A stretch of 64,000 nt of DNA from an uncultured Gemmatimonadales bacterium (GCA_963798915.1 CAWCVB010000001.1:96001-160000), one strand, 5' to 3'. Shown: positions 15,052 through 59,521, counted from the stretch's first letter. Translations and numbers: made by a program. The notes: generated by a model not told the origin, from the letters alone.

Positions 15052-15239
15052 GAGTTGAGGGTTACGACGTGAGGTTCGGCGAGATGGACGGGCCGAAAGT
15101 AACAGCATGTCACCCGAGCAACGCACCGTGTCGTCCAGAGCAAAGCGAGGGAGGACACACCGCCCCGCCCGTCTTGCCCGCCCTGCCGAGCCGGATCTGG
15201 CGAAGCGCTCAGCCGGGGCGTAGGTTGGGGGGCCATTTA

Positions 15240-15398
15240 TGGTCGTCAGTCGTCGGTCGTCGGTCTTCATTGCGAGGCAGCGTCAGTCTCCTTCAGCGAG
15301 CACCGCGAGCGAAGGGCCGGACGCCCGAGTGAGCTTCGGTCCCCTCACTATGCTCGGATGACATGCCGCGACGACCGACGACCGACGATCGACGACCT
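15240..15398. repeat. Nested repeat: inverted heptamer tracts enclosing a degenerate REP-like element
   Basis: ggtcgtcagtcgtcggtcgtcggtc on the left, cagcgagcaccgcgagcgaagggccgga...ctcggatgaca inside, cgacgaccgacgaccgacgatcgacgacc on the right. Confidence 0.72.
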
Positions 15399-15421
15399 CC
15401 CAGCCCTCAACGCTGAGCCAC

Positions 15422-16654
15422 ATGACTAAGTCCAAGCTCTCCACCATGATGTTCCTGCAGTACTTCGTCTGGGGCGCCTGGTTCGTCACCATGGGTACTT
15501 ATCTGGGCCAGACGCTGCACTTCACCGGACGCGAGGTGGGGCTGGCCTACGGCGCCACGGCCATCGCCGCGCTGGTGTCGCCCTTCTTTATCGGGATCGT
15601 GGCCGACCGGTTCTTCGCCACCGAAAAGCTGCTCGCCATCCTGCATCTGGCCGGCGGCGTGATTCTCTGGTATGCCTCGACGCTGACGACGTTCGGCACC
15701 TTCTACCCGGTGCTGATTCTCTACGCCCTCTGCTACATGCCGACGCTGTCGCTGTCCAATTCCATCTCGTTCCACCACGTGCAGGATCCCGCCCGCGAGT
15801 TCCCCTTCATCCGGGTGCTCGGCACCATCGGCTGGATCGTGGCGGGCATCCTGATCGGCAAGGTGCTGCACGCCGATGCCCTGGCCCTGCCCATGCGGGT
15901 GGCCGCGGGCGCGTCCATCCTGCTGGGGCTCTATTCGTTCGGCCTGCCCCACACACCGCCCAGGGCGGCCGGCTCACCCTTCAGCGTGCGGGACGCGCTG
16001 GGGCTCGATGCGCTGGGCCTGCTCAAGGACCGCTCGTTCCTGGTCTTCGTGCTGGGCTCGTTCCTGCTCTGCATCCCGCTCCAGTTCTACTACACCTTCG
16101 CCAATCCGTACCTCAACGAGGTGGGCGCCCCCGATCCAGCGTTCATCCAGACCTTCGGCCAGATGAGCGAGCTGATCTTCATGCTCTTCCTGGCGTTCTT
16201 CCTCAAGCGATTCGGCATCAAGGTGATCATGCTGGCCGGCATGGCGGCGTGGGCGCTCCGCTACCTGGCCTTCGGTTATGGCGCGTCGGGGCCAGTGATG
16301 CCGCTGATCTACATCGGCATCCTGCTGCACGGGATCTGCTACGATTTCTTCTTCGTGAGCGGGCAGATCTATACCGATGAAAAGGCCGGGCCGAAGATCC
16401 GGGCCGCGGCCCAGGGCTTCATCAACTTCGTGACCAACGGCGTGGGCTACTTCATCGGCGCCTTTGTGAGCGGCGCCGTGGTGGACCGCTACGCCAGCTG
16501 CCAGGGCGGAGGCGCGCTCGAAGGATGTGCCGCCGTGACCCACGACTGGCACGCCATCTGGCTGGTGCCGGCTGCCGGTGCGGCGGTGGTGTTCGTTCTT
16601 TTCGCGCTGACGTTCAGGCCATCGAGACGGCTGGAGCCCGAAGGCAAGAACTAG
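15422..16654 (+). CDS. MFS nucleoside:H+ symporter family permease (NupG/XapB-like)
   Basis: Motifs [42 protein letters not shown]. About 12 TM segments. Confidence 0.93.
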
Positions 16655-44100: not shown

Positions 44101-44248
44101 GCCAGCTGGAGGAGATCTGGAGACGTGGCAGCTCGACGGTGGTACGGGTGGCAAGCGGGAGACGGGTGAAGGCCACGCCGCCGGCCAGCAGCAGCGAGAA
44201 CGCGATGGCCCAGATAACGGCCGGGCGGTGCGCGGCCCAGCGAATCAC
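41168..44248 (-). CDS. RND efflux permease (AcrB/MdtBC-like), second subunit
   Basis: GTG start at 44248 overlaps the upstream TGA. Motifs SAELMETYVTSPVE, GILVDNGLVVVE, PLALGG, GG...GT. Confidence 0.92.
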   Translation of the reverse strand: MIRWAAHRPAVIWAIAFSLLLAGGVAFTRLPLATRTTVELPRLQISSSWPGVSAELMETYVTSPVEAAIQPVRGVKKTSSESSEGSAMITVELEPETDVQMARLAIHERLEAIRGDFPPGVSPPQVLNYVPDDLQEQPLLRYTMAGPYTPGALLKISNDIAKPRLQAVEGVSGVNSYGGATPGVTVSYDGSRLRQLGISPVAIRTAVQNARVVQALGEEQQGATQSAVVVRDEPGSLSDLEKLPIVGPGGGVFRLGELATVRPSEDNRGRFYRLNGETAVALSVSRLPGADAIKTAARVKAEVANVTRLLPPGVVLTLQDDESVELARQLNELMLRGAIAFGVVLLVLGIALRNVKSVALVMGSAAVAIAGTSLGLYLLHIPANLLTLAGLGMGIGILVDNGLVVVERLRTAEDTPDGRAEAGRRIMPAVVGATLTTAVVLFPFLYLQGNARAAFIPFAAAFALALAWSVLSALIMVPALGAGHGIHRSGSSRLRHIYGKAVGGLVRWRWVTLSFAAAAVGVLTWGFIKKVPRSSWSFGPDARTTLSAGLSFPRGSDPESLDRGMREFEAIVVGVPGVDEVQSQGSPDGARMTVVFEREAGLGPLPYELYEKLTQRALLIGGAQVSVQPPQGPGYYGGSGGGGMSSYRIKLLGYSFDGVEQLALDLKGRLERIPRVRNVDINAASWRSERTVSVVLDPDRAALARYGVTAGDFAGAVARELAGGPTAMKLQIGDEELPVSVERVGAQTRSLDDLRQAIVPSPSDAPVRIRDLAAVDEATGLGTVSREDQQYLRIVSYEFRGPPKLAERTHKAFMASITVPPGYSVGDDEFAWSPDDSAKGLWLVFGIGVVLVILSVALVFDSIWAAAMIFLSLPLALGGVVAAFWLTGNAFTREAAVGVILVVGLAVNQSILLVDAALETRRAGRTGRAGLSVAQVVQAAEDRAGMIIMVTLTTLASLLPLAIGTDADSLFGAIALATAGGTLAGTIGAMFVVPAMVRGNWAGRTVRTGAAAKFMFHRHSRERGNP

Positions 44249-47200
44249 GTTGCCTCCACCGCCTTGCCCACCGCGGCTGACCGGCGCGCGCGCCGGCGCT
44301 CCCGCCAACGCTCGGTCACGGAGTACGCCGTCGGTAGCAGGAAGAACGTGACCAGCGTCGCCGTCACCGAGCCGCCGATGATGCCGGCGGCAAGGGGCTG
44401 ATAGAGCTCACCACCACTGCCAATGCCGAGCACCAGCGGGAGCACGCCCACCACGGTGGTAAGCGACGTCATGGTGATGGCGCGGAGCCGCTGCATGCCC
44501 CCCGCCAGGATGGCGTCATTGATCGAATACCCCTCGGCGCGGAAGCGGCGGATGGCATCGAGCTTTACCACCGCATCGTTGTCCGCGATACCGATCATCA
44601 CCACCATGCCGATGAGCGAGACGGCGTTGAGACTCTGTCCCGTGATCCAGAGGACAAAGATTCCGCCCGCCGCCGCCAGCGGCACGGTGAGCATCACCAG
44701 CAGCGGCGTGGTGAAGCTGCCGAACTCGCCGGCCAGCACCAGGAAGACCAGCGCCACCGACAGAATGGCGACCACCGTGAGTTCTTTGGTGGTGCGGCGC
44801 TGTTCCACGTCGGCGCCGGTCACCTGCCAGGTGATACCGGAAGGCGGACTGAGGGTCGAGAGCAGTGACTCCACGTCGCTGGACGCCCGTGCTGTGCCGC
44901 CCTGCTCCACCACGCCTTCGACGATATTCACTGGCCGCTGGCCGGAGCGCACCACTTCGACTGGAGCCTGCACCTCCTCCACCTGCACGAGCTGGCCCAC
45001 CGGGACGCCGTTCACCGGCGTGGCCAGGGCGGTCTGGAGGTCCTCGTTGAGCGCGCCGGCAAAGCGCACGCGAATGGGAATGCGGCGGTCGGTGAGCCGC
45101 AGTTCATCGGCGGCAACGCCGCCCAGGCCGCCCGCCAGTGCGTTGACCACCTCCTGCACCGCGATGCCGCGCTGGGCCATGCGGCCGCGCAGCAGGGTCA
45201 CTTCGAGCTGGGGCTGGGTGCTGCTGTAGGCGGCGCGGACGTCGGCCAGGGTGGGCAGCTTCTCCATCAACGTCTGGATGCTGTCGGCCCACCGGTCGGC
45301 ATCCGCCGAATGGGTCGCCGAGACTTCCACCTTGACCAGCCGTCCCTCCCGGCCAATCAGGCTCCCGAACTCCGACTGGCCGGCGAGGTCGAGCGCAAGC
45401 GAGCCCGCTGCGAGATCCGGCACCGCGGCACGCAGCGCATCAGCAAAGTTGCCGGCGTCCTTGCCGTCCGGTACGGGAATGATCAGCTGCGCCGAGGCGG
45501 AGGTGCCGGGATCGGCGCCGGAGAGCACCTCTTCATCGGTGGCCTGGCCGATGCGGGCGTAGATACCGGAGGAGCCAAGCTTTTCCGCGGCATCCACGAT
45601 GCGCCTCGCCTGGCGCATCGTCTCCTCGATGGCGGTCCCCTCGGCGAGCCGCACGTCGGCCACCACGGTGCCTTCGTCCACGCGGGGAAGAATTTCACGC
45701 GGCAGCCGCATGGCCACGAGCGCCGTCACGATCACCAGCCCCAGCGCCATGCCGAACACCGCGCGCGGATGTGCCAGGGACCAGATCATCCCGTGTTCGT
45801 ACCATCGCACGGGGGCGGGCACGCGCGCGGGAGGGGCAAAGGCTAGCCTTTGCCCCTCCCGCGCGCGGCGGCGCGATTTCATCATCATCACCGGCATCAG
45901 CGTGAGGGCCAGCACCAGGGAGGCGGCGAGCGACATCACCACGCTGAGCGAGAGATCGCGGAAGAGCGCCGCGGCGAGCCCGCGCACAAAGACGATCGGC
46001 CCGAACACCAGCAGGGTAGTGAGCGTGCCGGCGATCAGCGGGCCGCTCACTTCCTCGGTGGCGCGGCGGGCGGCCTCCATGGCTGGCACGCCCCGCTCGC
46101 GATATCGCCCGGTGGCCTCGGCCACCACGATCGCATTGTCCACCAGCAGGCCGACACCGAGGGCGAGCCCGCCGAGGGAGAGGATATTGATCGTGACATC
46201 GAGGAGCTGGAGAATCACCAGCGCCACCAGCACCGACAGCGGCACGATCAGCCCGATGGCGAGCGAGGCGCGCCAGTCCTTGAGAAAGAAGAGAATCACC
46301 AGCAGTGAAAGAATCCCGCCGGCGATGATCTCCTGGGAGAGGTTGCCGAGGGCATCGTTGACAAACCGCGCCTGCGCCGCCACCACGTGCATCTTGACGT
46401 CGGGGAATTCTTCTTCCAGCTGACTGATGGATTGATACATCCCGCGGGTCACGGCCACCGTGTTGGAGCCGGCGTCCTTGTAGACCACGAGGCCCACGGC
46501 GGCCTTCCCGTCCAGCAGCGTCTCGGTGCGCGGGTCGGCGGTGGTGAGCGACACCGTGGCGAGGTCGGAGAGCTTGATGCCGGAGCCGGCCGGCCCCACC
46601 GGTGTCTCGCCGATTTCCTGCGGGGTTCGAAACTCCGCAAAGGTGCGCACCGAGAAGCGGAACTGGCCTCGGCGGATAGTGCCGCCCGGTGTGCTCCGGT
46701 TGGCATTTTCAACTGCGGTGGCGATTTCGTCGGGATTGAGGCCCAGCGCCCGCATCCGTTCGGGATCCACCTCGATCCGGATCTCGTCTTCCGGCGCACC
46801 CACTACGGCCACACTGGCCACGCCATCGAGCTGCTCCAGCCGGCGGCTGTGCACGTCACGCGCGGTGTTGGCAATGGAGCGGAGGTCGCCGGGGCCGGTG
46901 AGCGCCAGCACGGCGATGGGGCGTTCCCCCGGATCGCTGGTGAGCAGCGTGGGCCGGTCGGCCCCTTCCGGCAGCGCGCCGCGGGCGTTGTCGAGCCGCT
47001 CGCGCACGGTGAGCACCGTGCCCGCCATGTCGGTGCCCCAGGCAAAGCGTGCGGTGGTGGTCACCTCCCCGTTCCGGCTCACACTGCGGAGGTCCACCAG
47101 TCCTGGTGTCGCCGCGATGGCCTGTTCGATCGGCTCGGCGACGAGGCGGGATACTTCGGTCGCGGCGGCACCGGAGTAGGCAGTGCGGATGGTAAGCACC

Positions 47201-47328
47201 GGCAGGGTCACGTCGGGGAGCAGCGATACCGGCAGCCGGCCGATCGAGATGATGCCAAGCAGCACCACCGCGATGGTGGCGGCAATGGTACTGACCGGGC
47301 GGCGCAGTGCGGCGGAGGCGAGGGACAA
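44245..47328 (-). CDS. RND efflux permease (AcrB/MdtBC-like), first subunit
   Basis: Motifs RRPV, LPVSLLPD, GLLVDNAIVVAE, RLRAITMTSLTT, PLAAGIIGG. Confidence 0.93.
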   Translation of the reverse strand: MSLASAALRRPVSTIAATIAVVLLGIISIGRLPVSLLPDVTLPVLTIRTAYSGAAATEVSRLVAEPIEQAIAATPGLVDLRSVSRNGEVTTTARFAWGTDMAGTVLTVRERLDNARGALPEGADRPTLLTSDPGERPIAVLALTGPGDLRSIANTARDVHSRRLEQLDGVASVAVVGAPEDEIRIEVDPERMRALGLNPDEIATAVENANRSTPGGTIRRGQFRFSVRTFAEFRTPQEIGETPVGPAGSGIKLSDLATVSLTTADPRTETLLDGKAAVGLVVYKDAGSNTVAVTRGMYQSISQLEEEFPDVKMHVVAAQARFVNDALGNLSQEIIAGGILSLLVILFFLKDWRASLAIGLIVPLSVLVALVILQLLDVTINILSLGGLALGVGLLVDNAIVVAEATGRYRERGVPAMEAARRATEEVSGPLIAGTLTTLLVFGPIVFVRGLAAALFRDLSLSVVMSLAASLVLALTLMPVMMMKSRRRAREGQRLAFAPPARVPAPVRWYEHGMIWSLAHPRAVFGMALGLVIVTALVAMRLPREILPRVDEGTVVADVRLAEGTAIEETMRQARRIVDAAEKLGSSGIYARIGQATDEEVLSGADPGTSASAQLIIPVPDGKDAGNFADALRAAVPDLAAGSLALDLAGQSEFGSLIGREGRLVKVEVSATHSADADRWADSIQTLMEKLPTLADVRAAYSSTQPQLEVTLLRGRMAQRGIAVQEVVNALAGGLGGVAADELRLTDRRIPIRVRFAGALNEDLQTALATPVNGVPVGQLVQVEEVQAPVEVVRSGQRPVNIVEGVVEQGGTARASSDVESLLSTLSPPSGITWQVTGADVEQRRTTKELTVVAILSVALVFLVLAGEFGSFTTPLLVMLTVPLAAAGGIFVLWITGQSLNAVSLIGMVVMIGIADNDAVVKLDAIRRFRAEGYSINDAILAGGMQRLRAITMTSLTTVVGVLPLVLGIGSGGELYQPLAAGIIGGSVTATLVTFFLLPTAYSVTERWRERRRARRSAAVGKAVEAT

Positions 47329-47357
47329 GGAGTTGGGGGTTAGGGGTTAGCGATTGG

Positions 47358-47490
47358 CGGTCGTCGGTCTTCAGTCGTCGGTCGTCAGCATGTGGCATCC
47401 CTACTGGATTCCTCGCTGCGCTCGGAATGACACATAGAAGAATCGACGCCTGACGATCGACGACTGACGACAGACGACCGAAGACTCGCG
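47358..47490. repeat. Nested repeat: inverted heptamer tracts around a half REP-like element
   Basis: ggtcgtcggtcttcagtcgtcggtcgtc, then gattcctcgctgcgctcggaatgaca, then gacgatcgacgactgacgacagacgacc. Confidence 0.8.
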
Positions 47491-47506
47491 GTTGTCGACC
47501 GTCGAC

Positions 47507-48622
47507 CTAATCCTTCGCCTCCTCCACATCCCGCCGCATCTCCACCTTCACCGGTGCATCATGCGTGAGCGTGAGATGGCCCGAGATGAGCACCGTGTCG
47601 CCGGGCGCCACCGGAATCTCGTTGCTGGCGGAATCCGGCAGGATGACCGTCTCCATGCCGTTGGATCGGCCGGGATTCACATAGGTCCACTTGGCCCGGC
47701 CTTCTTTCACCACGAAGACCAGCGGGCGCCCATCGCGCTCGAGCACGGCGGACGCCGGGACAATGATCTCGTTGGGCAGCCGGCTGCTCTCCAGCCGCAC
47801 GTCGGCGTACATGCCGGGGCGGAGCGGACCGGGGTTGGGGAGACTCACGATCACCTTGCCGGCGCGGGTGGTGCTGTCCACCAGCGGGAGCACGGCGGCG
47901 ATGCGGCCTTCGATGACGCGATCAGGAACTGCCGCCGTCGTGATGCGGGCCCGGCCACCTTGTTTGACCAGCGGGAGATCGTGTTCCAACACACTGGCTT
48001 CGAGCCGCATGCTGGCGAGACTCACCACGGTGGCGAGTTCGTCGCCAGCGGAGACCCGGGTGCCGGCTGCCACCGGCACGGCGTCAATCACGCCGCTGAA
48101 TGGGGCGGTGACGACGGCGCGGTCGCGGTCCAGCTTGGCCTTTTCGAGCTGGACCCGGGCGGCGGCGAGGCCGGAACGCGCCAGCGCATTCTGGCGGCGC
48201 TCCTTGGTCGGCGCCTGTCCTGAGACAATCGAGTCGGGGACGATGTTGTCGGTGTACTGCACCTGGGCCTGCGCCACCGCCGCCTCGGCCGACTGCACGT
48301 CCAGATCGAACGGGCGCGGATCGTACCGCACCAGTGTCTGGCCCTTGGACACGTGCTGGCCCGACTTCACCAGCACATCGGCGATGGTGCCCGGCACCTC
48401 GGCGCGGAGCCTGGCCACGTCGGCGCGGACCTGGCCATTGGTCGCGACGGTGAGGACCAGGTCGCCCTTCCGGACCACATCCCCCACCACCGGGAGCGAG
48501 AGGGTGCTGGCGCTGCGGGTGGCGGTGGAATCCGCCGTCGGACCGTCGGCCGCGCCCTTCTTGCAGGCGGACAGCGGCAGCAGCAGCGCGGCGGAGAGGG
48601 GGAGCAGGTCCCGCAGGGTCAT
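47507..48622 (-). CDS. RND periplasmic adaptor (membrane fusion) lipoprotein
   Basis: Lipobox LSAC. Motifs G.HVSKGQ.L, APFSGVI, LRPGMY, VPASAV. Confidence 0.92.
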   Translation of the reverse strand: MTLRDLLPLSAALLLPLSACKKGAADGPTADSTATRSASTLSLPVVGDVVRKGDLVLTVATNGQVRADVARLRAEVPGTIADVLVKSGQHVSKGQTLVRYDPRPFDLDVQSAEAAVAQAQVQYTDNIVPDSIVSGQAPTKERRQNALARSGLAAARVQLEKAKLDRDRAVVTAPFSGVIDAVPVAAGTRVSAGDELATVVSLASMRLEASVLEHDLPLVKQGGRARITTAAVPDRVIEGRIAAVLPLVDSTTRAGKVIVSLPNPGPLRPGMYADVRLESSRLPNEIIVPASAVLERDGRPLVFVVKEGRAKWTYVNPGRSNGMETVILPDSASNEIPVAPGDTVLISGHLTLTHDAPVKVEMRRDVEEAKD

Positions 48623-48713
48623 CGGGGAGTCCGGGAATGGGAACGCGGGTCGCGTCGGGGCAGAGCCATGGCTCTGACCGTACGAGGGTCGAGGGAACCG
48701 AAACTCGCCCATT

Positions 48714-48860
48714 TGTCATTCCCGCGAACTTCCCGCTTTCGCGGGAATGACGGGGAATCCATGAGGGCTCACCCCAGGTGAGTCGCCCCGCCCGCAATGG
48801 TCGCGGGTCACTCGACCCGAGACCCGAGACCCGAGACCCGAGACCCGAGACCCGAGACCC
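48714..48860. repeat. TGTCATTCCC..GGGAATGAC palindrome plus (GACCCGA)n heptamer tract
   Basis: tgtcattcccgcgaacttcccgctttcgcgggaatgacggggaatcc, and about 6.5 GACCCGA copies at 48814-48860. Confidence 0.82.
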
Positions 48861-48933
48861 CAAAAAGATGCGCCCAAGGCCTCAATGGTTGCTCAACGGG
48901 TGGCTCCGAGATACAGGGCACAATGGGACGCCA

Positions 48934-49650
48934 TCAGAAGCCTGTCAACTCTGGTTGACCCGCCCCCCCCCCGACGCCCCCCCGAGGGAAGCGCGCTTCG
49001 AGTCGGAGCGCCGCCTCCACCCGCCACTCCCAGCCGACGCGGTGGCTGAACTCGTGGAGGGATACATCCAGACAGGTGCGGACGCGATGCCGCAGAGTTC
49101 GCACATCCATGTCATAGCGCCCGGCCAATCCTTCCGCCGATTCATGCGCGGCCGTTTTTATTTTCGCGAGCTGAATCACCCATTCCCAGTGCCGGGGACT
49201 GAAGTGATTGCCCTGGCTGAAACGGCGACGCACTGAGCGGCGAGACAGCTCATTGCGTCCCTCCGCCACGAGTAGCCGAAGATGGGCCGCCAGCTTTTCC
49301 TGACCCGGGCGAGAGTCCACATAACGAAGCACTTCGGTAGCCGTCGGAGGCCGGCGGTTGCGGATGGCCGAGAGAGGACTCATGCCTGGTTTCAGAAAGA
49401 CGGGCACGCCGGGCAGCGACGAGACGGCGTCATACAGCTTGTCCAGATCCACTCTGGGGGTGTCGTCGGGCTGTTTCACAACGAGGCTGCACCAAGGAGC
49501 GGAGCCACGGACACCGAGCAGCGCCTGAATGCTCGCATGATCTGACCTGAACGGCCACAGTAGGATCGAGCCCAAGGGAGGGTCGGCGTGCCACGGCGAT
49601 TCGTCTAAGTAAGGCGGGACCAATAGCTTGCAGGCGAACAACGGGGGCAT
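48934..49650 (-). CDS. Putative transcriptional regulator with C-terminal AraC-like double HTH
   Basis: SRRSVRRRF...SPRHW...SAEGLAGRYDMDVRTLRHRVRTCLDVS pattern. Divergent from the propeller cluster. Confidence 0.55.
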   Translation of the reverse strand: MPPLFACKLLVPPYLDESPWHADPPLGSILLWPFRSDHASIQALLGVRGSAPWCSLVVKQPDDTPRVDLDKLYDAVSSLPGVPVFLKPGMSPLSAIRNRRPPTATEVLRYVDSRPGQEKLAAHLRLLVAEGRNELSRRSVRRRFSQGNHFSPRHWEWVIQLAKIKTAAHESAEGLAGRYDMDVRTLRHRVRTCLDVSLHEFSHRVGWEWRVEAALRLEARFPRGGVGGGAGQPELTGF

Positions 49651-50074
49651 TGCTCACTCCGAGTGCGATCTGGAAGCCTCCATAGTAGGGAACGCCGCAT
49701 CACGGCGATACTGGGTTTTTCCCAATTCCGATAACTTTCCTCGGAATTCGCGATTCCGGGCAGGCGGTCCACAGGCAAGAAACGGCAGGATCTGGCCGGA
49801 GTCGGTATTCCTCGGTGCGATGGCTGCGCATTAAAGTGGATGCGCTTGAAGATTTCTCTGATATGCCTGGCCTTCTTAAGTCAGCGTAGCCACCGCAGGC
49901 ACCGAACTTTGCAACTGTAAGCGTCACCATGTCTAGCATCACCTCGCCCAGCTGCCGCTACGCACTCTCGCAATCTCGCTTGGCGCCGTCGAGTCCGTCA
50001 GGTATCTGCATGACCAATACTCAGCATCACATCCTAGCACAGTGTCGCAGCTTCATCCATCCATCGGTACTACC

Positions 50075-51139
50075 ATGAACCTGTATTCCTCGGCTCACAT
50101 TGTGGCGCTCCTCCTTCCAGTATCGCTGGCTTGTGCCGGTGAACGGAGGCCCGCAGAGACTGCCGCTATCGATAGTCCAATGCAGCCACCAGCCTTCGCA
50201 CTCCACCCGATTGGCACCATCCAGGATGACTCCGCCGGTACTTGGAGAATGGGCAAGCCTCGGGCTGTTCAGATGGCCGGGCGCAACACTCTGCTAATCC
50301 TGGATTCAGACTGGAAGCACATTTTGGTCCACGATGCCGCGACGGGCCGTCTTCTCGGAATGATCGGAAACGGCTATGGCGCTGGCCCTGGCGAATTGGC
50401 CCTTCCCGTGGCAATGGTTGTCAGCGACACTCGCGTATACATCCTTGACTATGAACTTCGAAAGGTCAGTGTGTACAAGTTAACCGGTGCCTTTGTACGC
50501 GACATCTCCATCGCCTCCGTACAGGCTCGGGATTTCATTCTGGACCGTGACTCGCTCGTTGTCCGTCTCATGTCGCCCGATTCATCTGGTGCCCTAGCAC
50601 TTTTTGACCTGCGTGGCGATACAGCCATTAGATATGCACATCCCCTTGGCAGCCATGACCGGCAACTGGCTGAAGCGGGGGCTGGCGGCGTCCTTTTAGA
50701 GGCCAATGGTCAATGGCCTTCCGCATACATAAATGGCGACGGGAGCAGCATCACAAGTACTGATGGGTCGGCCCTGCACGGACCACTTGCAGCTACGACC
50801 AAGCTCCATACAACGACAAACGCTGGCGCAGCCTTACCATGGACGATTCCGGAACGCACAGCAATCAGTGCAACGAGGCTGACCAACGGCTGGCTTGTGA
50901 TCCTTGTGTCAGTAATACCTGTGAGCCGTTTGGTGAGCGCTGATAGCGTTCGCGCTGACTATTACCTCAGCGCCTATGATGCGACTTATCGTCCGCTTGG
51001 CTCTGCGATGCTCCGCTTGAATCGGAGTGACCTTCCAGTAGCCGTCGACGCTGGCGCGGCAGATAACGACCTCTATGTCAGCATCGTGGGACCATCGGGC
51101 CGTGTCGAGCACGTCAAGCTCGACCAGCACGACTACTAA
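50075..51139 (+). CDS. 6-bladed beta-propeller lipoprotein (copy 1)
   Basis: Lipobox SLAC. GNGYGAGPGELALP motif and YILD...VSVY...G.FVR. Confidence 0.8.
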   Translation: MNLYSSAHIVALLLPVSLACAGERRPAETAAIDSPMQPPAFALHPIGTIQDDSAGTWRMGKPRAVQMAGRNTLLILDSDWKHILVHDAATGRLLGMIGNGYGAGPGELALPVAMVVSDTRVYILDYELRKVSVYKLTGAFVRDISIASVQARDFILDRDSLVVRLMSPDSSGALALFDLRGDTAIRYAHPLGSHDRQLAEAGAGGVLLEANGQWPSAYINGDGSSITSTDGSALHGPLAATTKLHTTTNAGAALPWTIPERTAISATRLTNGWLVILVSVIPVSRLVSADSVRADYYLSAYDATYRPLGSAMLRLNRSDLPVAVDAGAADNDLYVSIVGPSGRVEHVKLDQHDY

Positions 51140-51155
51140 TGTGCATGGAGACCAT

Positions 51156-51689
51156 ATGACCACGGCCCTTAAGTTCGCCGTAATCATGGCGCTCGCCTTT
51201 GTTGGTTGGCTTCTCGGTCGACTGTCCCAAGGCCACACCGCTCGCGAGAGTCCATTGATGCTTGCGGTTGGCGAGACGATACCACCTGTTACGCTTAAAG
51301 GCGACGGCGGGCGCTCGATCGGAATTCGAAGCGCGATGGAGGAAGCGGACTCGAGTGTTTTGCTCATCGTATCATCGACGTGCAGCACCTGCATTGGTGA
51401 GCTTGCTTCATGGAATAGCTGGGCCCGTCAGAGCCCATCGCATCACATCACCGTTCTCGTTTATGCGCCGGACTCCTCATGGATAGGCCGTGCCCGAGCT
51501 ATGGTGAAGCCGGTATTCGATTTGAGACGGATCGCAGACAGGAAGACGGTGGACGCTCTCGGTGCGCACTACTCACCTACGGCATATGTCGTTAACCGAG
51601 ACGCGATCGTTCTTTCAGCGTCGCGAGGCATAGCCGCCACGGCCAGACTTAAGACTCGCCTCATGGGACCTGTCTCGAGGCAACCGTGA
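51156..51689 (+). CDS. Membrane-anchored thioredoxin-fold (TlpA/redoxin-like) protein
   Basis: GGAG RBS, N-terminal TM helix, VGETIP, CSTC (CxxC), cis-Pro-like SPTAYVVN. Confidence 0.75.
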   Translation: MTTALKFAVIMALAFVGWLLGRLSQGHTARESPLMLAVGETIPPVTLKGDGGRSIGIRSAMEEADSSVLLIVSSTCSTCIGELASWNSWARQSPSHHITVLVYAPDSSWIGRARAMVKPVFDLRRIADRKTVDALGAHYSPTAYVVNRDAIVLSASRGIAATARLKTRLMGPVSRQP

Positions 51690-51980
51690 CCTGCGAATCG
51701 CATGTGCTGTTTGAACACACTCTGAGATCTCAATGGACGCACTCCCGTCCGCCCTTTGTGGGCGTTTGCGTCGGACAGCAGCGGATTCGTCGCCATCTGG
51801 GCGCCTGAGACGCATGCCGAGGATGCCTCACCTAGTACCTTGGCGCGCCTTCAGGTCTGGACTATCACTCGCGAGTGCGGGCGGGCAATGCATCGGCGTC
51901 CGAGTATGAGCGATCAGGTACGTATGAAGAGCCCTTGCGTGGGGTCGTTCGCTGTGTCATCTAGAAGGAGGTGAGAGATA

Positions 51981-52226
51981 ATGTCAAATCACGTTTCAAG
52001 CGTGCTTTACCCAGTGCTGGCTACCGCGGTGTTTGTCGTTGCGGCCGCGCTCGGGTCAAGCCGGGCCGCTCAGGCAGCCGAGCAGACGGACTTCTGCCCT
52101 GGCGCAGATTACTGTTACACGGCCGGTGGATGCTCTGCATGCAAGAATACCGCGTGCATCACCGGCGGTAACTGCCCTGATCCAGGCACCCAAGGAAGCA
52201 ACTGTTACGTGTGTGCTGCTCCCTAA
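51981..52226 (+). CDS. Small secreted 8-cysteine peptide
   Basis: Strong RBS AGAAGGAGGTGA. Predicted 32-aa Sec signal ending AQA. 49-aa mature region with C-x5-C-x5-C-x2-C-x4-C-x5-C-x9-C-x2-C. Confidence 0.85.
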   Translation: MSNHVSSVLYPVLATAVFVVAAALGSSRAAQAAEQTDFCPGADYCYTAGGCSACKNTACITGGNCPDPGTQGSNCYVCAAP

Positions 52227-52309: not shown

Positions 52310-53350
52310 ATGCAAGCGACTTGGTCCATCACAGTCGCCACCGTGTTGGTCGCAGCCTGTTCCTATTCTGAGGACTCTGCCGGCAGCTTGGCGCGGTCCG
52401 AGTTTCCTGCCAGCTGGACGCGCGTCGCAGCATTCGCCGCACCAAGCTCGCTCACATTGGGCGACGTCGGCGCGGCGGCCATTGCAGCGGACGGCACGAC
52501 ATTTATCCTCGATCCGTTCGAAGGCCGGGTGTACATCCGGCCAACGGATGGCGCAATCCGGTCCTTCGGGCGGATGGGCGACGGTCCCGGAGAGTTCCGC
52601 CAGCCGTTCAGGTTGATTGCCTTTGCGCCACATCGCATCGGCGTCGTGGACCGCACCCACGAAAATCTCACCATCTTCACCACGGATTCCGCGCCACCGC
52701 AACTGATCGCGGCGCACTCCTTACCCGCTGCACCGCTCGACTATTGCATCGGCCAGGGCTACGCCGCCGAACTGACGAGTGATCCGGCCAAGAGCATCCT
52801 GCTGCTGGATTCATCCTGGAGCCTAGTCGCTACGGTTGCGCTCAGCTCTGGGGTCGATAGCACGAGGCCGGAGACGCAGGCGACCGCCTTCTTCCGGCGG
52901 CAGGGATTCCTCGTCTGCGCGAGCTCCACGCGGCTCGTCCACGTCTCGCAGTCCGCGGGCCTCGTCAGCCTCGTTGACGTCGCAGCCCATCGTGTCATCG
53001 GCACCGACACGATTCCCGGATTCATTCCCTCGAGACTCTCGATTCGCCCCGGCGGAGTCCGCCTCGATATCGATCCCGAGCGTGGCGTAGCGGATCGCGT
53101 GATCAGCGGGGTCATGCTCTGTCCCGAAGTGGCGGGCTTCATTGTCATGGAGGACCGGCCCCGGCAGGATACCACACCACGACGGGTCTTCATGGCCGCC
53201 TACAATCTGATAACCGGGCACTTCGACAGCCTCCTGGGGGAAACGCCCGAATTCCTGGCGCTCGATCATGGCCTCGCCGTCTCGCGTGTTCGCGATCCGG
53301 AGCCCTCGGCGCAAATCTGGACGGTCGAGTCACACTGCGACGAACGATAG
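52310..53350 (+). CDS. 6-bladed beta-propeller lipoprotein (copy 2)
   Basis: Lipobox VAAC and GRMGDGPGEFRQP. Confidence 0.82.
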   Translation: MQATWSITVATVLVAACSYSEDSAGSLARSEFPASWTRVAAFAAPSSLTLGDVGAAAIAADGTTFILDPFEGRVYIRPTDGAIRSFGRMGDGPGEFRQPFRLIAFAPHRIGVVDRTHENLTIFTTDSAPPQLIAAHSLPAAPLDYCIGQGYAAELTSDPAKSILLLDSSWSLVATVALSSGVDSTRPETQATAFFRRQGFLVCASSTRLVHVSQSAGLVSLVDVAAHRVIGTDTIPGFIPSRLSIRPGGVRLDIDPERGVADRVISGVMLCPEVAGFIVMEDRPRQDTTPRRVFMAAYNLITGHFDSLLGETPEFLALDHGLAVSRVRDPEPSAQIWTVESHCDER

Positions 53351-53442: not shown

Positions 53443-54543
53443 ATGCGCAGAGTCTGCTTCGCCGGCGGCCTTGTATTCTGCATCGCTAGCTGCCGCCAGT
53501 ATCAACATCCCACCGGTAGTGCCGTGCTCACAGTGGACACTGTCCCCATCACCGAGGCGCGCGCGACTGGGCCGGGCGGAGCGGTCGTCCTCGGCGATGC
53601 CGCGGCGGCCACGCGCCTCTCCAACGGCAATGTGGTCATCGCAGATGACAACAAGGGTGACATCGCGCTGCGCGTTTTTGACAGCACTGGCAGGCATTTG
53701 TTTGACTTCGGACACAAGGGCCGGGGGCCCGGCGAAGTCGAGGACGTCTCTTCCCTCGCGCGCTGCGGCCGGGATTCCATATTCGTACTCGACTCAAGGC
53801 AGCATCGCGTGGTTGTGTTCAGCCCGGCAGGTACGCTGGGGCGCACCAGCGCCGTTGAACCGATGGTCATGCTGGTCTGTTCCACCCATGGAGCGTCACT
53901 TGCCATCGGACCCATCCTCGATTTCTTCCGACCGACCGAACAGAACGCAGGACGCCTCCAGCATATGCACGTGGACTTGATGACTCCATCGGATACGGTC
54001 CGGCTGTACGACAGTCTGCCGGCCATTGACCCTCGCTTCGGCGGCAGGGTCCCAGCCTTTGCCATCGCGGGGAACCGGGCAATCGTCGGGCTGACGGATT
54101 CCGCCTTCGCCGCTGTGTTCGGGCCCGACGGAACCGAGTCCCCACCGATCCGAGTCTCCGACGATCCTGAACCGCAAACCCAGGCTGGCTTTGAGCGCAC
54201 GATCGAGGCGTTCTTCGCACACTATCCGGGACTGGCCGACCAGAAGGCCTCGTTCCTGAAGCTCCCACATCCTGCTCTGGCGCCCGCCTTCTTTGCGCTC
54301 TACGGCAGTCCGAACGGCGCGCTCTGGACTCAGCTGAGTGCACCGGACGATTCCACCGTACGCCTCCGCGCAACAGACTCGCTCGGCGCCGCTATCGGCC
54401 ACGTCACCCTGCCCTTCCCGCTCACCATCTTCGAAATCGGCGACGACTACATCCTGGGGCGTCGGGAAAACGAGTTGGGAGAGCAGCGGGTGGTTGTGTA
54501 CAGGATTGGCGGGATGGGCAAGATGGGCGGGACGGGCAGGTAA
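53443..54543 (+). CDS. 6-bladed beta-propeller lipoprotein (copy 3)
   Basis: Lipobox IASC, GHKGRGPGEV, C-terminal IFEIGDDYILG...NELGEQRVVVYRI. Confidence 0.85.
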   Translation: MRRVCFAGGLVFCIASCRQYQHPTGSAVLTVDTVPITEARATGPGGAVVLGDAAAATRLSNGNVVIADDNKGDIALRVFDSTGRHLFDFGHKGRGPGEVEDVSSLARCGRDSIFVLDSRQHRVVVFSPAGTLGRTSAVEPMVMLVCSTHGASLAIGPILDFFRPTEQNAGRLQHMHVDLMTPSDTVRLYDSLPAIDPRFGGRVPAFAIAGNRAIVGLTDSAFAAVFGPDGTESPPIRVSDDPEPQTQAGFERTIEAFFAHYPGLADQKASFLKLPHPALAPAFFALYGSPNGALWTQLSAPDDSTVRLRATDSLGAAIGHVTLPFPLTIFEIGDDYILGRRENELGEQRVVVYRIGGMGKMGGTGR

Positions 54544-54613: not shown

Positions 54614-55819
54614 ATGCGCACCGAACACCTGCTTGTGCTCGCCTTTGGCCTCTCCCTCGGTTGCGCTGAGACGCATGGAGGTGAGGCAGTCTCCACCAGC
54701 GCCTCGACTCAGGGCGACACGGCAGTAGTCACGATTAGCGCACCCGAGTCGCTCCCGGCGCTGCTGGTGACACTCGACTCGGCCCGGGTGATCTGGACGC
54801 CGGAGGAGCTGGGCCGACCCAATGGCATGGCCGTGGGGCCCGATGGCCGACTTATGGCGAGTGATGGCCGGCACCTGTATGCCCGGCAACCAGGCGCCGA
54901 CACCACTGAAGTTGTCAGCCGGGAGGGCGCCGGACCCGGCGAATACCGTTCGGTCCGAGCGTTGCTCGCTGAGGACGATGGGTCATTCCTCGTGCTGGAC
55001 GCGCGACAACGGCGGATGATCCACTTCGCCCATGATGGCGCCCCGGACAGTACCTGGTCACTGAACCGGGACTTCGCGCAGGTCTCCTTCATGGCGCTCA
55101 TGAACGATAGCCCCGTCATCCTGGTCGGCCCGCGGCTGGTGCGCACCGGCGAACCACCGGACACGCTCTACCTCAAGCCGGCCAGTGGTGACACGGCAGC
55201 GGTGCTTGGCAGGCTCACGCAGTACGTATGGGCGCAGGCTCCGGGTGGCATGCTCCTGCCTCGGGATGCGTATCCGCCCCAGGCGCTCGTGGCCGGCACG
55301 GCAAGCGGCGGCTTCGCCTTCAGCGACGGCCTGCAATATGAAGTCCGCTGGTGGCGGCCCGATGCCTCACCGCGCTGGCTCCGGATTTCGCGCGCCTGGG
55401 CGCCACCGCCGACATCGAGTGACCGGGAGCCACCGGACAGCCTGCTCAGCCAGATGCGAGGCGGTGGCACGCAGATGCGGGAGATGGTCGGCGGAATGCA
55501 AAGGGGCAGCCACAAGTACAGCCTGGAAGATGTGGAACTCATGCCGGGCGGCACCCTCTGGACCAGGCCGATCGACAGCTCCTATGTATATCACCCGTGG
55601 TACTACAACTCGCTCAGCGAGCTCCGACAGCCCACTCGGCTCTGGGAAGTCTTCGGCCGGGACGGCAAACTGCGCGCCCAGGTGCGGCTCTCCTCGATGT
55701 TCACGCCCAAGACCGTACGCGCCTGCCAGCTCTATGGGTTCCTCGAGGACAACGACGGCGCGTACTCAATCGCTGCGATTCCGCTGGGGAAAGAATGCAA
55801 GAGGCTGGCTCAGTCGTGA
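54614..55819 (+). CDS. 6-bladed beta-propeller lipoprotein (copy 4)
   Basis: Lipobox SLGC, SREGAGPGEYRSV, WEVFGRDG. Confidence 0.85.
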   Translation: MRTEHLLVLAFGLSLGCAETHGGEAVSTSASTQGDTAVVTISAPESLPALLVTLDSARVIWTPEELGRPNGMAVGPDGRLMASDGRHLYARQPGADTTEVVSREGAGPGEYRSVRALLAEDDGSFLVLDARQRRMIHFAHDGAPDSTWSLNRDFAQVSFMALMNDSPVILVGPRLVRTGEPPDTLYLKPASGDTAAVLGRLTQYVWAQAPGGMLLPRDAYPPQALVAGTASGGFAFSDGLQYEVRWWRPDASPRWLRISRAWAPPPTSSDREPPDSLLSQMRGGGTQMREMVGGMQRGSHKYSLEDVELMPGGTLWTRPIDSSYVYHPWYYNSLSELRQPTRLWEVFGRDGKLRAQVRLSSMFTPKTVRACQLYGFLEDNDGAYSIAAIPLGKECKRLAQS

Positions 55820-57030
55820 CGGGCAAGGCGGACAAAGCGGGCAGGACGGGCTGGTTGCTCCTTCTCCTTCTGCTTTTGGTTGCCTGCAGTGAGGAGTCAC
55901 CGGCTGCGCGGACGCGGGTGTTCGACAGCGCTGGCATCACCATCGTCGAGAACAGTGACGCAGCCGAGCCAGCCATTGCCTCAAGGCTGGTAGAATCCCA
56001 CCCCATTCTGCGTATAGGCCAGGAAGACGGACCTGAGGCGTATCGCTTCGATGGCGTGCGAGATATCGCTCGGCTCTCTGACAGCACCATCGTCGTGGCC
56101 GACCGATCCGGCTCGATTCGCTTCTTCGACAAGCGCGGTCAGTTTCTTCGTGCTGTCGGCCGTCACGGTGAGGGGCCCGGCGAATATCGCGTCATCAACT
56201 TCATGCGACGCATTCGGAGCGATTCGCTGCTGGTCTGGGATTTCCCCGCCCGGCGCATCACGATACTCGCGCCTGACGGAACTCTTCAGCGCAGCGAGCC
56301 CGGTCCGGTGACGGAGGGGTTCTTCTATGGCTTGGACGCGTTCGCCGAAGGATCGCTCCTGGGCTCCTATGATGGTCCGCTCACTGGCGCCAGACCTGCG
56401 AATGGCATTCTCCGCACGACTTCGGCCGTGGTCCGGTTCTCGCCCTCGTCAGGCACGATGGATACGCTGGCACTGATCACCATCGGCAGCTCGTATGTGT
56501 CGGGAGGCGAACACTTCAGGATCTCCAGTATGCCCTACCCAGCCGAGGCCATGGCGATCGCGGCCGGACGCTCCGCGTATGTTGGAAGCAGCGAGCGTTT
56601 CGAAATCGCCTTCCGCAATGAGAACGGCCAATTGGTGCGTCTGATCCGCCTCGACCGTGCGCCTGCGGCAATCGATGACTCCACTCGCGAGCGCTACATC
56701 GCCGACCAGCTCTTGCACGCCCGCACTGAGGCCGGTCGGGAGCGGCTGAAGGCACTCTACGCCGAGTTGCCGTTCCCCAAGACCCTGCCCGCGTTTGGCG
56801 CGCTGGCGGTGGATGCTGATTCCAACCTCTGGGTGAGCGCCTACGCGCTCACGGACACGCTCCCGACGCGCTGGACCATCTTCGACCCGGCCGGCCGCAT
56901 CCTCGCCGAAGCCCGGACGCCGGCGCGGTTCAAGGTCTTCGCCATTGCCCGCGAAGATATCATCGGCGTGCGCTCGGACAGCGTGGGGACTGAGCAGGTG
57001 CAGGTGCTGCGGTTGCGGAAAGTCCAATGA
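55816..57030 (+). CDS. 6-bladed beta-propeller lipoprotein (copy 5)
   Basis: GTG start overlapping the upstream TGA. Lipobox LVAC, DSAGITIVEN, GRHGEGPGEY, VDADSNLWV, WTIFDPAG. Confidence 0.88.
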   Translation: MTGKADKAGRTGWLLLLLLLLVACSEESPAARTRVFDSAGITIVENSDAAEPAIASRLVESHPILRIGQEDGPEAYRFDGVRDIARLSDSTIVVADRSGSIRFFDKRGQFLRAVGRHGEGPGEYRVINFMRRIRSDSLLVWDFPARRITILAPDGTLQRSEPGPVTEGFFYGLDAFAEGSLLGSYDGPLTGARPANGILRTTSAVVRFSPSSGTMDTLALITIGSSYVSGGEHFRISSMPYPAEAMAIAAGRSAYVGSSERFEIAFRNENGQLVRLIRLDRAPAAIDDSTRERYIADQLLHARTEAGRERLKALYAELPFPKTLPAFGALAVDADSNLWVSAYALTDTLPTRWTIFDPAGRILAEARTPARFKVFAIAREDIIGVRSDSVGTEQVQVLRLRKVQ

Positions 57031-57266
57031 AGCGAGTGGGCAGGATGGACCAGCGTCGCGTCACCCTGCGGGCGCCGACCCCCGCTTTCCCGAAGGGAAC
57101 AGCGGCTATCGGGGCGGGTTCGAGAAGGCGACCGCGCTGCCCCAAACCGTGGCGATTCCGCTACGAATACGGTACCGGCCGCACTTTCGGGGTGATAGAG
57201 GGCTACGGGCTGCAGGCGATCCTGGCGCATGCCCCCTTGCCAACTCCTGCCGCCGAGCCGAGCCTT

Positions 57267-57854
57267 ATGGGTATGCCTGATACAGCTGGACGCGAGACGC
57301 GGGACGCGAGACGCTGGACCCGGGACGCGGTGCTCGCGCTCCCCGACGATGGCCGTCGCTACGAACTCATTGACGGTCAGCTGGTCGTGACGTCGGCGCC
57401 CTCCGGCGGCCACCAGGTGGCCGTCACCACCCTGCTGCTGCGCATCGGGCCTGTCCTGAAGCAGGCAGCCGACACCAGCGCCCGCATCCTGGTGTCCCCG
57501 GCGGACATCAGCCTGGGTGAGGAGGAAATTCTCCAGCCCGACCTGTTCATCTATCTGGCCGAAACCGGGCGACAGCTCACTGAATGGAGCGACATTTCAT
57601 CGCTCCTGGTCGCCATCGAGATCCTGTCGCCTTCGACGGCGCGGTACGACAGAGGACTCAAGCGACTGCGCTACCAGCGCGCGCTCGTGCCGGAATACTG
57701 GATCGTGGATCTGGACGGAAGACTGGTGGAGCGCTGGCGACCGGACGACACGCGGCCGGAGGTGTTGCGCGAGCGATTGCTCTGGGCGTCGGGTGACGGA
57801 GCCGAAGTGGATCTAGACCTGCGGGAATTCTTCAGGGAAGTGGCGGGAACATGA
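57267..57854 (+). CDS. Uma2 (DUF820) family PD-(D/E)XK endonuclease, copy 1
   Basis: Motifs YELIDG.LVV..P...HQ, QPD, EILSPST...D...K...Y, VPEYWIVD. Confidence 0.92.
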   Translation: MGMPDTAGRETRDARRWTRDAVLALPDDGRRYELIDGQLVVTSAPSGGHQVAVTTLLLRIGPVLKQAADTSARILVSPADISLGEEEILQPDLFIYLAETGRQLTEWSDISSLLVAIEILSPSTARYDRGLKRLRYQRALVPEYWIVDLDGRLVERWRPDDTRPEVLRERLLWASGDGAEVDLDLREFFREVAGT

Positions 57855-58101
57855 AGGGCAGACGGACAGGGCGCATCTGACGTAGCACATCATTGCGAGG
57901 AGGCGCCGACGGCGCCGACGAAGCAATGACGAATTGGCAAGCTGTCGCCGCAGGCGACGCCTGCCGAGCCACGGTCATCAGCCGCGGGAAACCCGGCACC
58001 AATCCGCCACCGGCCGCGTTTCCTCGATGACAGCGAGCAGTGCGGCGCTGGCGATCCTGAGGCATGCCCCCTTGCCAACTCCCGCCGCCGAGCCGAGCCT
58101 T
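57855..58101. repeat. 247-bp inter-Uma2 spacer containing a TCATTGC...GCAATGA REP-like palindrome
   Basis: Nearly identical to 58690-58936. Palindrome at ~57890-57930. Confidence 0.9.
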
Positions 58102-58689
58102 ATGGGTATGCCTGATACAGCTGGACGCGAGACGCGGGACGCGAGACGCTGGACCCGGGACGCGGTGCTCGCGCTCCCCGACGATGGCCGTCGCTACGAG
58201 CTTATTGACGGCGAACTGGTGGTGACGCCGGCGCCCGCTTGGCGGCACCAGGGAGCTGTCACCACGTTATGCGCCGTCCTGAAGCAGGCCTTGGATCGCG
58301 CTCCGGGCACCGTTGCGCGATTGCTGGTCTCCCCGGCGGACATCCAACTTGGTGAAGAAGAGATCCTTCAGCCGGATCTGTTCGTCTACACGATCGCGTC
58401 CGGACCGCGGGCGGAGGATTGGGGTGATATTTCGGGGCTCCTGCTCGTGATTGAAGTCCTCTCGCCCTCCACCGCGCGCTACGACCGGGGCCTGAAGCGG
58501 CTGCGATACCAGCGGGCCCGGGTGCCCGAATACTGGATCGTGGATCTCGACGGCCGCGTCGTGGAACGCTGGCGCCCGGATGATGCGCGGCCGGAGGTAC
58601 TGGCTGATCGGCTGCAGTGGTCGTCGGGCGATGGGGCTGAGGTGAACCTGGATCTGGAGGCGTTCTTCAGGGAAGTGGCGGGAACATGA
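58102..58689 (+). CDS. Uma2 family endonuclease, copy 2
   Basis: Same motifs. Start is exactly 835 bp after copy 1. Confidence 0.92.
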   Translation: MGMPDTAGRETRDARRWTRDAVLALPDDGRRYELIDGELVVTPAPAWRHQGAVTTLCAVLKQALDRAPGTVARLLVSPADIQLGEEEILQPDLFVYTIASGPRAEDWGDISGLLLVIEVLSPSTARYDRGLKRLRYQRARVPEYWIVDLDGRVVERWRPDDARPEVLADRLQWSSGDGAEVNLDLEAFFREVAGT

Positions 58690-58936
58690 AGGGCGGGCGG
58701 ACTAGGCGCATCTGACGTAGCACGTCATTGCGAGGAGGCGCCGACGGCGCCGACGAAGCAATGACGAATTGGCAAGCTGTCGCCGCAGGCGACGCCTGCC
58801 GAGCCACGGTCATCAGCCGCGGGAAACCCGGCACCAATCCGCCACCGGCCGCGTTTTCTCGATGACAGCGAGCAGTGCGGCGCTGGCGATCCTGAGGCAT
58901 GCCCCCTTGCCAACTCCCGCTGCCGAGCCGAGCCTT
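58690..58936. repeat. Second inter-Uma2 spacer with a CGTCATTGC...GCAATGACG palindrome (58723-58766)
   Basis: Direct comparison with 57855-58101. Confidence 0.9.
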
Positions 58937-59521
58937 ATGGGTATGCCTGATACAGCTGGACGCGAGACGCGGGACGCGAGACGCTGGACCCGGGACGCGG
59001 TGCTCGCGCTCCCCGACGACGGCCGGCGCCGCGAACTTATTGACGGCGAACTGGTCGTGACGCCGTCGCCGTCCGATTCCCATCAGCGTGCTGTTGGGGA
59101 GCTGTATTTCCTGCTTCGGCTGGCGCTATCGCGAACCCCGGAAACTGCGGCGAGCCTTCTCTTCTCCCCAGCCGATATCAGCCTCGGCGAGGATGAAATC
59201 CTTCAGCCGGACCTCTTCATCTACCGAACCGCCAGCGGACGGATTCGGGAATGGAGCGACATAGCTTCGCTCCTGGTCGCCATCGAGATTCTCTCCCCCT
59301 CCACCGCGCGCTACGATCGCGGCCTCAAGCGGCTGCGCTACCAGCGGGCCCGGGTGCCCGAATACTGGATCGTGGATCTCGACGGCCGCGTCGTGGAACG
59401 CTGGCGCCCGGATGATGCGCGGCCGGAGGTACTGGCTGATCGGCTGCAGTGGTCGTCGGGCGATGGGGCTGAGGTGAACCTGGATCTGGAGGCGTTCTTC
59501 AGGGAAGTGGCGGGAGAGTAG
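58937..59521 (+). CDS. Uma2 family endonuclease, copy 3
   Basis: Same motifs. Start is 835 bp after copy 2. Confidence 0.92.
   Translation: MGMPDTAGRETRDARRWTRDAVLALPDDGRRRELIDGELVVTPSPSDSHQRAVGELYFLLRLALSRTPETAASLLFSPADISLGEDEILQPDLFIYRTASGRIREWSDIASLLVAIEILSPSTARYDRGLKRLRYQRARVPEYWIVDLDGRVVERWRPDDARPEVLADRLQWSSGDGAEVNLDLEAFFREVAGE

Follow-up and report, generated by a model that had tools for sequence, protein, structure and literature searches.

A rare family of putatively exported eight-cysteine peptides encoded beside thioredoxin-fold and propeller genes in an uncultured Gemmatimonadales bacterium

The question raised by this locus is whether a short open reading frame with a cysteine-rich tail, found in the genome of an uncultured Gemmatimonadales bacterium, is a gene, and what such a product might do in its host. 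The ORF lies in a stretch of 64,000 nucleotides, called the window below. A preliminary description had read in it a near-perfect ribosome-binding site, a hydrophobic signal ending in AQA, and a 49-aa mature part with eight Cys in a spacing that it could assign to no named family; it suggested a knottin/defensin-like or a metal-binding peptide. The 81-aa ORF was found on the plus strand with exactly the sequence quoted there, and its parts are the following (positions are those of the window).

51981..52226, plus strand: gene of the eight-Cys peptide precursor, 81 aa plus stop, member of a conserved family
51965..51974, plus strand: Shine-Dalgarno site AAGGAGGTGA, followed by a 6-nt spacer and the ATG at 51981
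51981..52076, plus strand: predicted Sec signal peptide, residues 1-32, ending in AQA (from hydropathy and small residues)
52077..52223, plus strand: predicted mature 49-aa peptide with the framework C-x5-C-x5-C-x2-C-x4-C-x5-C-x9-C-x2-C

The ribosome-binding site was thus present in full. Counting both strands, the 3.3-Mb genome has only seven copies of the 10-mer, and genes next to the peptide gene show a weak Shine-Dalgarno site or none that is comparable. Codon usage singled out the annotated frame as the best of six (-0.25 versus -0.55 to -0.77); its score is negative, as are those of the two low-GC genes upstream. GC3 of the ORF is 0.61, versus about 0.85 in typical genes. A promoter and terminator scan around the gene gave nothing above chance, and folding of the 83-nt spacer on its 3' side yielded no terminator-like fold and again nothing above chance. 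No Rfam family was matched in the segment 48000-58000. A search of sequencing runs listed no RNA run with the peptide gene, and one DNA run with a share of 0.07.

The precursor reads MSNHVSSVLYPVLATAVFVVAAALGSSRAAQA / AEQTDFCPG...CYVCAAP, where the signal part ends in SSRAAQA and the eight Cys all follow AQA; the predicted mature part is 49 aa long. When heuristic Sec/signal peptidase I criteria were applied, the precursor showed a hydrophobic core (residues 11-26, mean Kyte-Doolittle hydropathy 2.3-2.4) and, behind it, small residues at positions -3 and -1. In the homologues described below, these two positions are likewise occupied by small residues, directly ahead of the Cys domain. The n-region of the window precursor has no basic residue, whereas K or R is present in most homologues. 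Cleavage would be expected to take place behind AQA.

Homologues were not easily found. A word-based protein search with the single peptide returned four candidates, none of them at E<=1. With tblastn, 60 relatives gave nothing below E 0.001 except the window itself; the best match (0.0028, G033) was rejected as it lay in the wrong frame within a 621-aa permease-like ORF. None of nine genomes of the same genus matched when the single protein served as query. An exhaustive HMMER search of 1.84 billion representatives produced 17 matches at E<=1e-3, ten of which had E<=1e-10. Fifteen are proteins of 61-137 aa with a hydrophobic N-terminus and a Cys-rich tail (two of the 15 are truncated); the other two (960 and 2253 aa) were set aside as spurious, being long and repetitive. 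A profile search found 12 homologues of the peptide, and cluster look-ups gave further close variants. Four copies were located in genomes: two in G185, one in G579 and a distant one in G238. The window peptide and 24 homologues make up the alignment of 25 rows used below. The database homologues are unnamed or called 'hypothetical protein' and have no Pfam domain. Two diverged members of the family, P0006 and P0013, come from one 1904-nt JGI contig, judging by equal source and size, and are possibly tandem paralogues as in G185.

Pattern scans added no member. Across 185,579 species genomes, 17 stretches and one locus were retrieved, and the locus proved to be a wrong-frame ORF over another gene; the single pattern used was blind to the 'ACPT' subfamily and this outcome is not evidence of absence. 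The JGI metagenome contigs gave 62 stretches and four loci without a family member, and these loci were rejected since they had only the word CPGxxYCY in common with the family.

The two paralogues of G185 were compared with each other. In the mature part dN is 0.26 and dS 1.14, with every Cys kept, and the signal parts are nearly identical (dS 0.10). About 215 nt around the start of each of the two genes are 86% identical, and a strong Shine-Dalgarno site is also found ahead of copy 2. Because the homologues share eight invariant Cys, the ORF cannot be put down to chance: it is a member of a genuine gene family, both conserved and rare. The preliminary description was to be given up if Cys-conserving homologues did not exist; homologues keeping all eight Cys do exist.

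In the alignment, C39, C45, C51, C54, C59, C65, C75 and C78 are invariant (25/25), and so are P40 and P66, which form two Cys-Pro pairs, and G72. D67 and Y76 are nearly invariant, and Lys55 is mostly conserved. The framework of the family can be written as C-x(5,6)-C-x(4,5)-C-x(2,3)-C-x4-C-x(3-6)-C-x9-C-x2-C. The first Cys pair is CxxC in nine rows and CxxxC in 16, the last pair is Cx2C in all 25, and the third Cys is displaced by one position between subfamilies. From the first Cys onward the net charge is negative in 21 of the 25 members. We assume that the eight Cys form four disulfides. Mean pLDDT of the AlphaFold2 models was 53.7 for the precursor and 54.2 for the mature part, values too low for the disulfide connectivity or the fold, be it of knottin or defensin type, to be read.

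The Cys spacing indeed corresponded to no named family in the databases searched. A Pfam search at E<=10 returned a single line, noise at E 3.2, and sequence searches of NCBIfam and the PDB gave no match; in the ESM Atlas the best score was 0.81, to unnamed clusters. With its conserved homologues and no family match, the proposal of a mini-protein that is exported, can form disulfides and falls under no named family held up. Several named types were compared and rejected. A CS-alpha-beta defensin (CxxxC plus CxC) does not fit since there is no CxC, the last pair being Cx2C throughout. The NVEALA model PF14055 was not matched by the peptide at E<=10. A two-CxxC metal knuckle, metallothionein or zinc ribbon was dismissed with the first CxxC present in 9/25 rows only and no Pfam model matched; the metal site of two CxxC considered in the preliminary description is weakened. 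As to bacteriocins with a double-glycine leader, the signal of the peptide is of Sec type, and a search of the genome (84.8% complete) for the C39 peptidase family (PF03412) gave no match. Radical-SAM enzymes are present (ten PF04055 matches), the nearest on the contig being 96 kb away. With no match for a C39 exporter and the closest radical-SAM gene at such a distance, neither a double-glycine-leader bacteriocin nor a radical-SAM-matured RiPP is likely. Outside the window, this genome has two further exported Cys-rich ORFs: a lipoprotein-like one of 142 aa with 14 Cys (G000:C2:542785-543213, minus strand; G000 is the genome of the window) and one of 73 aa with six Cys (G000:C4:31730-31951, minus strand), neither with a DUF5128 gene near it.

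The neighbouring genes provide the context in which the peptide has to be considered.

50075..51139, plus strand: propeller A, an NHL/DUF5128-type six-bladed lipoprotein with a lipobox-like VSLAC (assigned by PF17170 and a PDB profile)
51156..51689, plus strand: membrane-anchored thioredoxin-fold (Trx-like) protein of 177 aa with C76-S-T-C79 (assigned by orthologues and the Atlas)
52310..53350, plus strand: propeller B, a second propeller lipoprotein, starting 83 nt downstream of the peptide gene
53443-54543, 54614-55819 and 55795-57030, plus strand: three propeller lipoprotein paralogues whose membership in the cassette is uncertain
48934..49650, minus strand: divergent 238-aa ORF, a possible regulator (sub-threshold HTH_18 match, E 0.0066, 17.2 bits versus a cut-off of 33.6)

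Propeller A matched PF17170 at E 1.8e-5 (24.6 bits, cut-off 22.9). A three-sequence profile of it detected NHL (TRIM-NHL) domains in the PDB with E values from 2.5e-19 to 1.8e-7, the Bacteroides-type 'putative exported protein' 4raa at 3e-4 and, faintly, SOQ1 (0.04). The match of propeller B to PF17170 was weak (E 0.0081, 15.8 bits) and below the cut-off. The Trx-like protein begins with an N-terminal membrane helix and was matched by neither Pfam nor NCBIfam. In the Atlas it came closest to clusters of the Redoxin/AhpC-TSA/TlpA type (score 0.96, 184 of 256 features common); in the PDB its profile reached E 0.07 at best, which is not significant, with a 'possible thiol-disulfide isomerase', and its weak neighbours there are of the thiol-disulfide isomerase or peroxiredoxin-like kind. 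The copies of the window and of G185 have C76, C79 and P141 in common. The genome also encodes a VKOR homologue and a CcdA/DsbD-type protein, and a search of it for DsbB was negative.

Downstream of the peptide gene there are four propeller lipoproteins in all, each with a lipobox-like signal. As the genome holds at least 16 PF17170 (DUF5128)-like genes, propeller neighbours alone are not rare in it, and the three propellers beyond propeller B may be unrelated paralogues. A crude whole-genome screen for exported ORFs with at least six Cys found eight candidates, among which the window peptide alone lies less than 1 kb from a DUF5128 gene; by that filter, the other propeller paralogues of the genome are without such a partner.

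GC content is 56-58% across 49500-52000, that is, over the genes of propeller A, the Trx-like protein and the peptide, versus 66% in the genome, and this suggests a joint arrival of the three genes. The propeller genes downstream of the peptide have normal GC3.

On the other side the cassette adjoins genes (44245-48712, minus strand) for an RND-type efflux pump (1027 aa) and a membrane-fusion-type lipoprotein (401 aa), both named from their translations by eye. A tandem repeat of the 7-nt unit GACCCGA, in about seven copies (48814-48862), separates this efflux adaptor gene from the putative regulator. Related GACGCGA repeats are found at 57289-57323 and 58124-58158, inside or ahead of three tandem paralogues of Uma2-family putative endonucleases (57027-59521; PF05685, first E 3.8e-27), which also contain a repeated 284-nt segment with 84% identity.

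The same set of genes recurs in two further genomes. The window, G185 and G579 represent three families of one class, and these three full contexts are the basis of the comparison; the two outside the window both belong to the 'ACPT' subfamily. The window peptide is of the 'FCPG-DYCY' subfamily, whose other members are metagenome proteins. In the window the order is propeller A, Trx-like, peptide, propeller B. It differs from the order on the 4.6-kb contig of G579, where the peptide gene comes first and is followed by those of propeller A, Trx-like (CHTC) and propeller B, all overlapping at their ends, and from that in G185, where two peptide copies are followed by propeller A, Trx-like (CRRC) and propeller B, with transposase-like ORFs between. 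By BLASTP, propeller A of the window is 39% identical to that of G579 (E 5e-29) and 37% to that of G185 (E 3e-26). The Trx-like proteins matched at E 4e-13 (G579) and 3e-17 (G185), and each copy has a peptide gene beside it. Propeller B is 28% identical over 310 aa to the last cassette gene of G579 (E 5e-16) and matched the corresponding propB of G185 at E 1e-8. In the whole G000 genome, propeller A and the Trx-like protein of G185 each match only the window's gene. The databases contained just one further relative of propeller A, P0028, which is on a single ENA contig of 27550 nt, and the peptide homologue P0012 comes from an ENA contig of the same source and size; this is probably a fourth co-occurrence of peptide and propeller A.

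Occurrence of the family is patchy. With the window's own genome included in the counts and with overlapping samples, the peptide was present in two of 401 genomes of the phylum sample, in one of 145 of the order of G185, and in four of 401 of the class sample. Among 401 genomes the Trx-like profile had strong matches in G000 and G185 only. Transposase- or integrase-like ORFs break the G185 cassette (locus L021, G185:C77) at 11156-12184 (minus strand), 13169-13882 (minus strand) and 14896-15636 (plus strand); these IS ORFs lie between the two peptide copies and ahead of propeller A. Since the cassette is carried by three families of one class and none of the nine same-genus genomes matched, it looks like a mobile accessory unit. 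The earlier reading of the locus stands as far as the exported peptide goes; it had missed the cassette, that is, the Trx-fold CxxC protein and the two propeller lipoproteins.

The reading that we favour, with a probability of about 60%, is that the peptide of ~49 aa, Sec-exported and held by four disulfides, is the small, fast-evolving part of a conserved, mobile four-gene envelope cassette, in which the Trx-like protein acts on its Cys and the propellers bind it. The precursor would be exported by the Sec pathway and cut by signal peptidase behind AQA, releasing the mini-protein, whose eight Cys would form four disulfides in the cell envelope. A Trx-fold CxxC protein in the cassette points to thiol-disulfide chemistry on the peptide, and the Trx-like protein may oxidise or shuffle its Cys. 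With both a VKOR homologue and a CcdA/DsbD-type protein in the genome, it might be an oxidase, an isomerase or a reductase. Precedents that support such a reading come from the bacteroidetocins, where a dedicated thiol oxidoreductase accompanies a Cys peptide, and from SOQ1, where Trx-like and NHL modules act jointly; both are described below. Propellers A and B are candidate binding partners; complex prediction for the mature peptide and propeller A gave a median score of 0.26, the mark being 0.32, a result that counts neither way.

As to what the peptide is for, our leading guess, a tentative one, is that it serves as an effector in competition or defence, because its distribution is patchy, IS-linked and of low GC and its paralogues are diverging. 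The very strong ribosome-binding site was also counted in favour of an effector, as were paralogues that combine a constant signal with varied loops. The negative net charge of most members was counted against a membrane-active antimicrobial peptide, for which it would be unusual.

The best surviving alternative, though an unlikely one, is a periplasmic metal-binding peptide whose reduced Cys hold Cu(I), Zn or Cd, with the TlpA-like neighbour acting as the reductase. TlpA is a reductase that keeps copper-site proteins ready, and the Trx-like protein is indeed nearest to clusters of the Redoxin/TlpA type, in a genome with a CcdA/DsbD-type electron supplier. Eight invariant Cys, the C-terminal CxxC kept in 25/25 rows and the acidic nature of the peptides would agree with a metal site. 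However, the first CxxC is a CxxxC in 16/25 rows and the subfamilies differ by one position in the placing of their third Cys, and disulfide frameworks are more tolerant of such shifts than metal knuckles. Moreover, there is no conserved His, no metallothionein or metal-binding Pfam model was matched, and the cassette contains no metal transporter or sensor.

Less probable still is that the peptide is a small Cys-rich subunit, or the cofactor-bearing chain, of a propeller enzyme. Methylamine dehydrogenase combines a light chain, a heavy-chain propeller and the thioredoxin-like MauD, and the gamma subunit of quinohemoprotein amine dehydrogenase is an analogue for a small Cys-rich chain. The cassette agrees with the methylamine dehydrogenase genes in content, each set comprising a small, disulfide-rich chain that is exported, together with a propeller and an accessory protein of thioredoxin type; its genes are tightly coupled in G579, and the nearly invariant Tyr76 and mostly conserved Lys55 could be seen in this light. 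But 20 of the 25 domains, the window's included, are without Trp. In the absence of a conserved Trp a tryptophan-derived quinone (TTQ) is excluded, and the peptide was rejected as a light chain of this type; the light-chain Pfam family was not matched either. The propeller is of the six-bladed NHL type, unlike the heavy chain with its seven blades. Neither a radical-SAM nor a heme partner is encoded nearby (the closest radical-SAM gene of the contig being the one 96 kb off), and the G185 paralogues diverge fast in the loops between their Cys, as would not be expected of a catalytic subunit. A chance ORF or a mis-called frame without product, for which the atypical composition and the failure of the first word-based search and of the 60 relatives to give a homologue might speak, is excluded by the 24 homologues with invariant Cys and matching signal design, the purifying selection in the G185 pair, the full Shine-Dalgarno site and the conserved neighbourhood.

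Beyond the eight-Cys family, similar arrangements were seen with other peptides. The Trx-like profile had four weak matches in other genomes of the phylum, and three of these directly adjoin small exported ORFs with 7-8 Cys that are unrelated to the family. The Cys-rich ORFs are located at 655-930, 1081-1347 and 2220-2486 (minus strand) in L025 (G278:C29), at 2049-2264 (plus strand) in L027 (G293:C53), and at 1781-2371 (plus strand) in L028 (G097:C66), where a propeller then follows; the Trx-like genes beside them encode membrane-anchored proteins with TCPxC. The distant relative in G238 (L034, G238:C221, 7713-10115) is an exported protein of 90 aa with ten Cys, found at E 1.8e-5, which has the stretch CDYCYNAGGC in common with the family. 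On its 3' side there are genes for a propeller of 412 aa and for a DsbA-like protein that has CPYC and a membrane anchor.

A broader reading of the locus might apply, at somewhat less than even odds: an envelope system, widespread and so far undescribed, in which a split machine of the SOQ1/NHLRC2 kind serves to mature, carry or sense a small, disulfide-rich exported peptide of its own that diversifies rapidly. The machine would be made up of a membrane-anchored thioredoxin-fold enzyme with either one NHL propeller lipoprotein or two. Unrelated peptide families would then share the chassis in several phyla, the window being one family-specific instance. If this were true, the peptides would make up a class of bacterial effectors or signals, exported through Sec, that is new.

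A literature search, with subscription journals outside its coverage, found no description of a peptide/propeller/thioredoxin cassette and no paper on DUF5128 or NVEALA. Going by sequence comparison, the peptide family appears to be new; by the literature search, its cassette appears to be without a description in print, and known systems resemble the cassette in parts only. Disulfide-rich mini-proteins are familiar as toxins, defensins and inhibitors of animals, plants and fungi; to our knowledge, they are rare and poorly charted in bacteria. The present family has a fixed eight-Cys framework, variable loops and a compact group of helper genes dedicated to it. Should the folding of the peptide be the work of these helpers, the cassette would amount to a self-contained kit for producing a stable scaffold with four disulfides.

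One partial likeness is to neighbourhoods of Bacteroidales that contain NVEALA small proteins (PF14055), DUF5128 propellers (PF17170) and TlpA-like proteins. Here, too, a small exported protein is encoded with one or more DUF5128-type propeller lipoproteins and a thioredoxin-fold protein; unlike the NVEALA proteins, the window peptide does not match PF14055.

A second comparison is with the bacteroidetocins, class IIf bacteriocins of Bacteroidales. In these, a thiol oxidoreductase is needed for full toxin activity and was proposed to form the disulfides, and the system comprises a peptide with a 15-aa double-glycine leader and four Cys, a C39-peptidase ABC exporter and a five-TM protein (PMC6671954). 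The cassette shares with it a small exported peptide with conserved Cys, an adjoining gene for a thiol oxidoreductase, here a putative one (51156-51689), and a patchy, strain-variable distribution. It differs in that the window peptide has a Sec-type signal and eight Cys and is without sequence similarity to these toxins, and in that two propeller lipoproteins stand in place of the exporter and the TM protein. Should the peptides act as effectors in competition, the known bacteriocins would gain a type that depends on Sec and is associated with propellers.

The closest parallel to the helper genes is offered by SOQ1 and NHLRC2. In SOQ1, the Trx-like domain docks on the top face of the six-bladed NHL propeller, the redox CxxC motif lies at the Trx-NHL interface, and substrate binding is attributed to the propeller (bioRxiv 10.1101/2021.03.16.435614). 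NHLRC2 likewise has a Trx-like domain fused to a six-bladed NHL propeller (PMC6107167). The cassette shares with both a Trx-like CxxC module, an NHL-type six-bladed propeller and a client, here a presumed one, outside the cytoplasm. By analogy, the arrangement resembles a split version of SOQ1/NHLRC2. Unlike in these proteins, each module has a gene of its own here, the Trx-like protein being anchored in the membrane and the propeller being a lipoprotein; the propellers number two, and the cassette itself also encodes the presumed client. If the helpers fold the peptide, the cassette would provide a bacterial, genetically separable model of how Trx-like and NHL propeller modules cooperate, a question that human NHLRC2 and plant SOQ1 pose as well.
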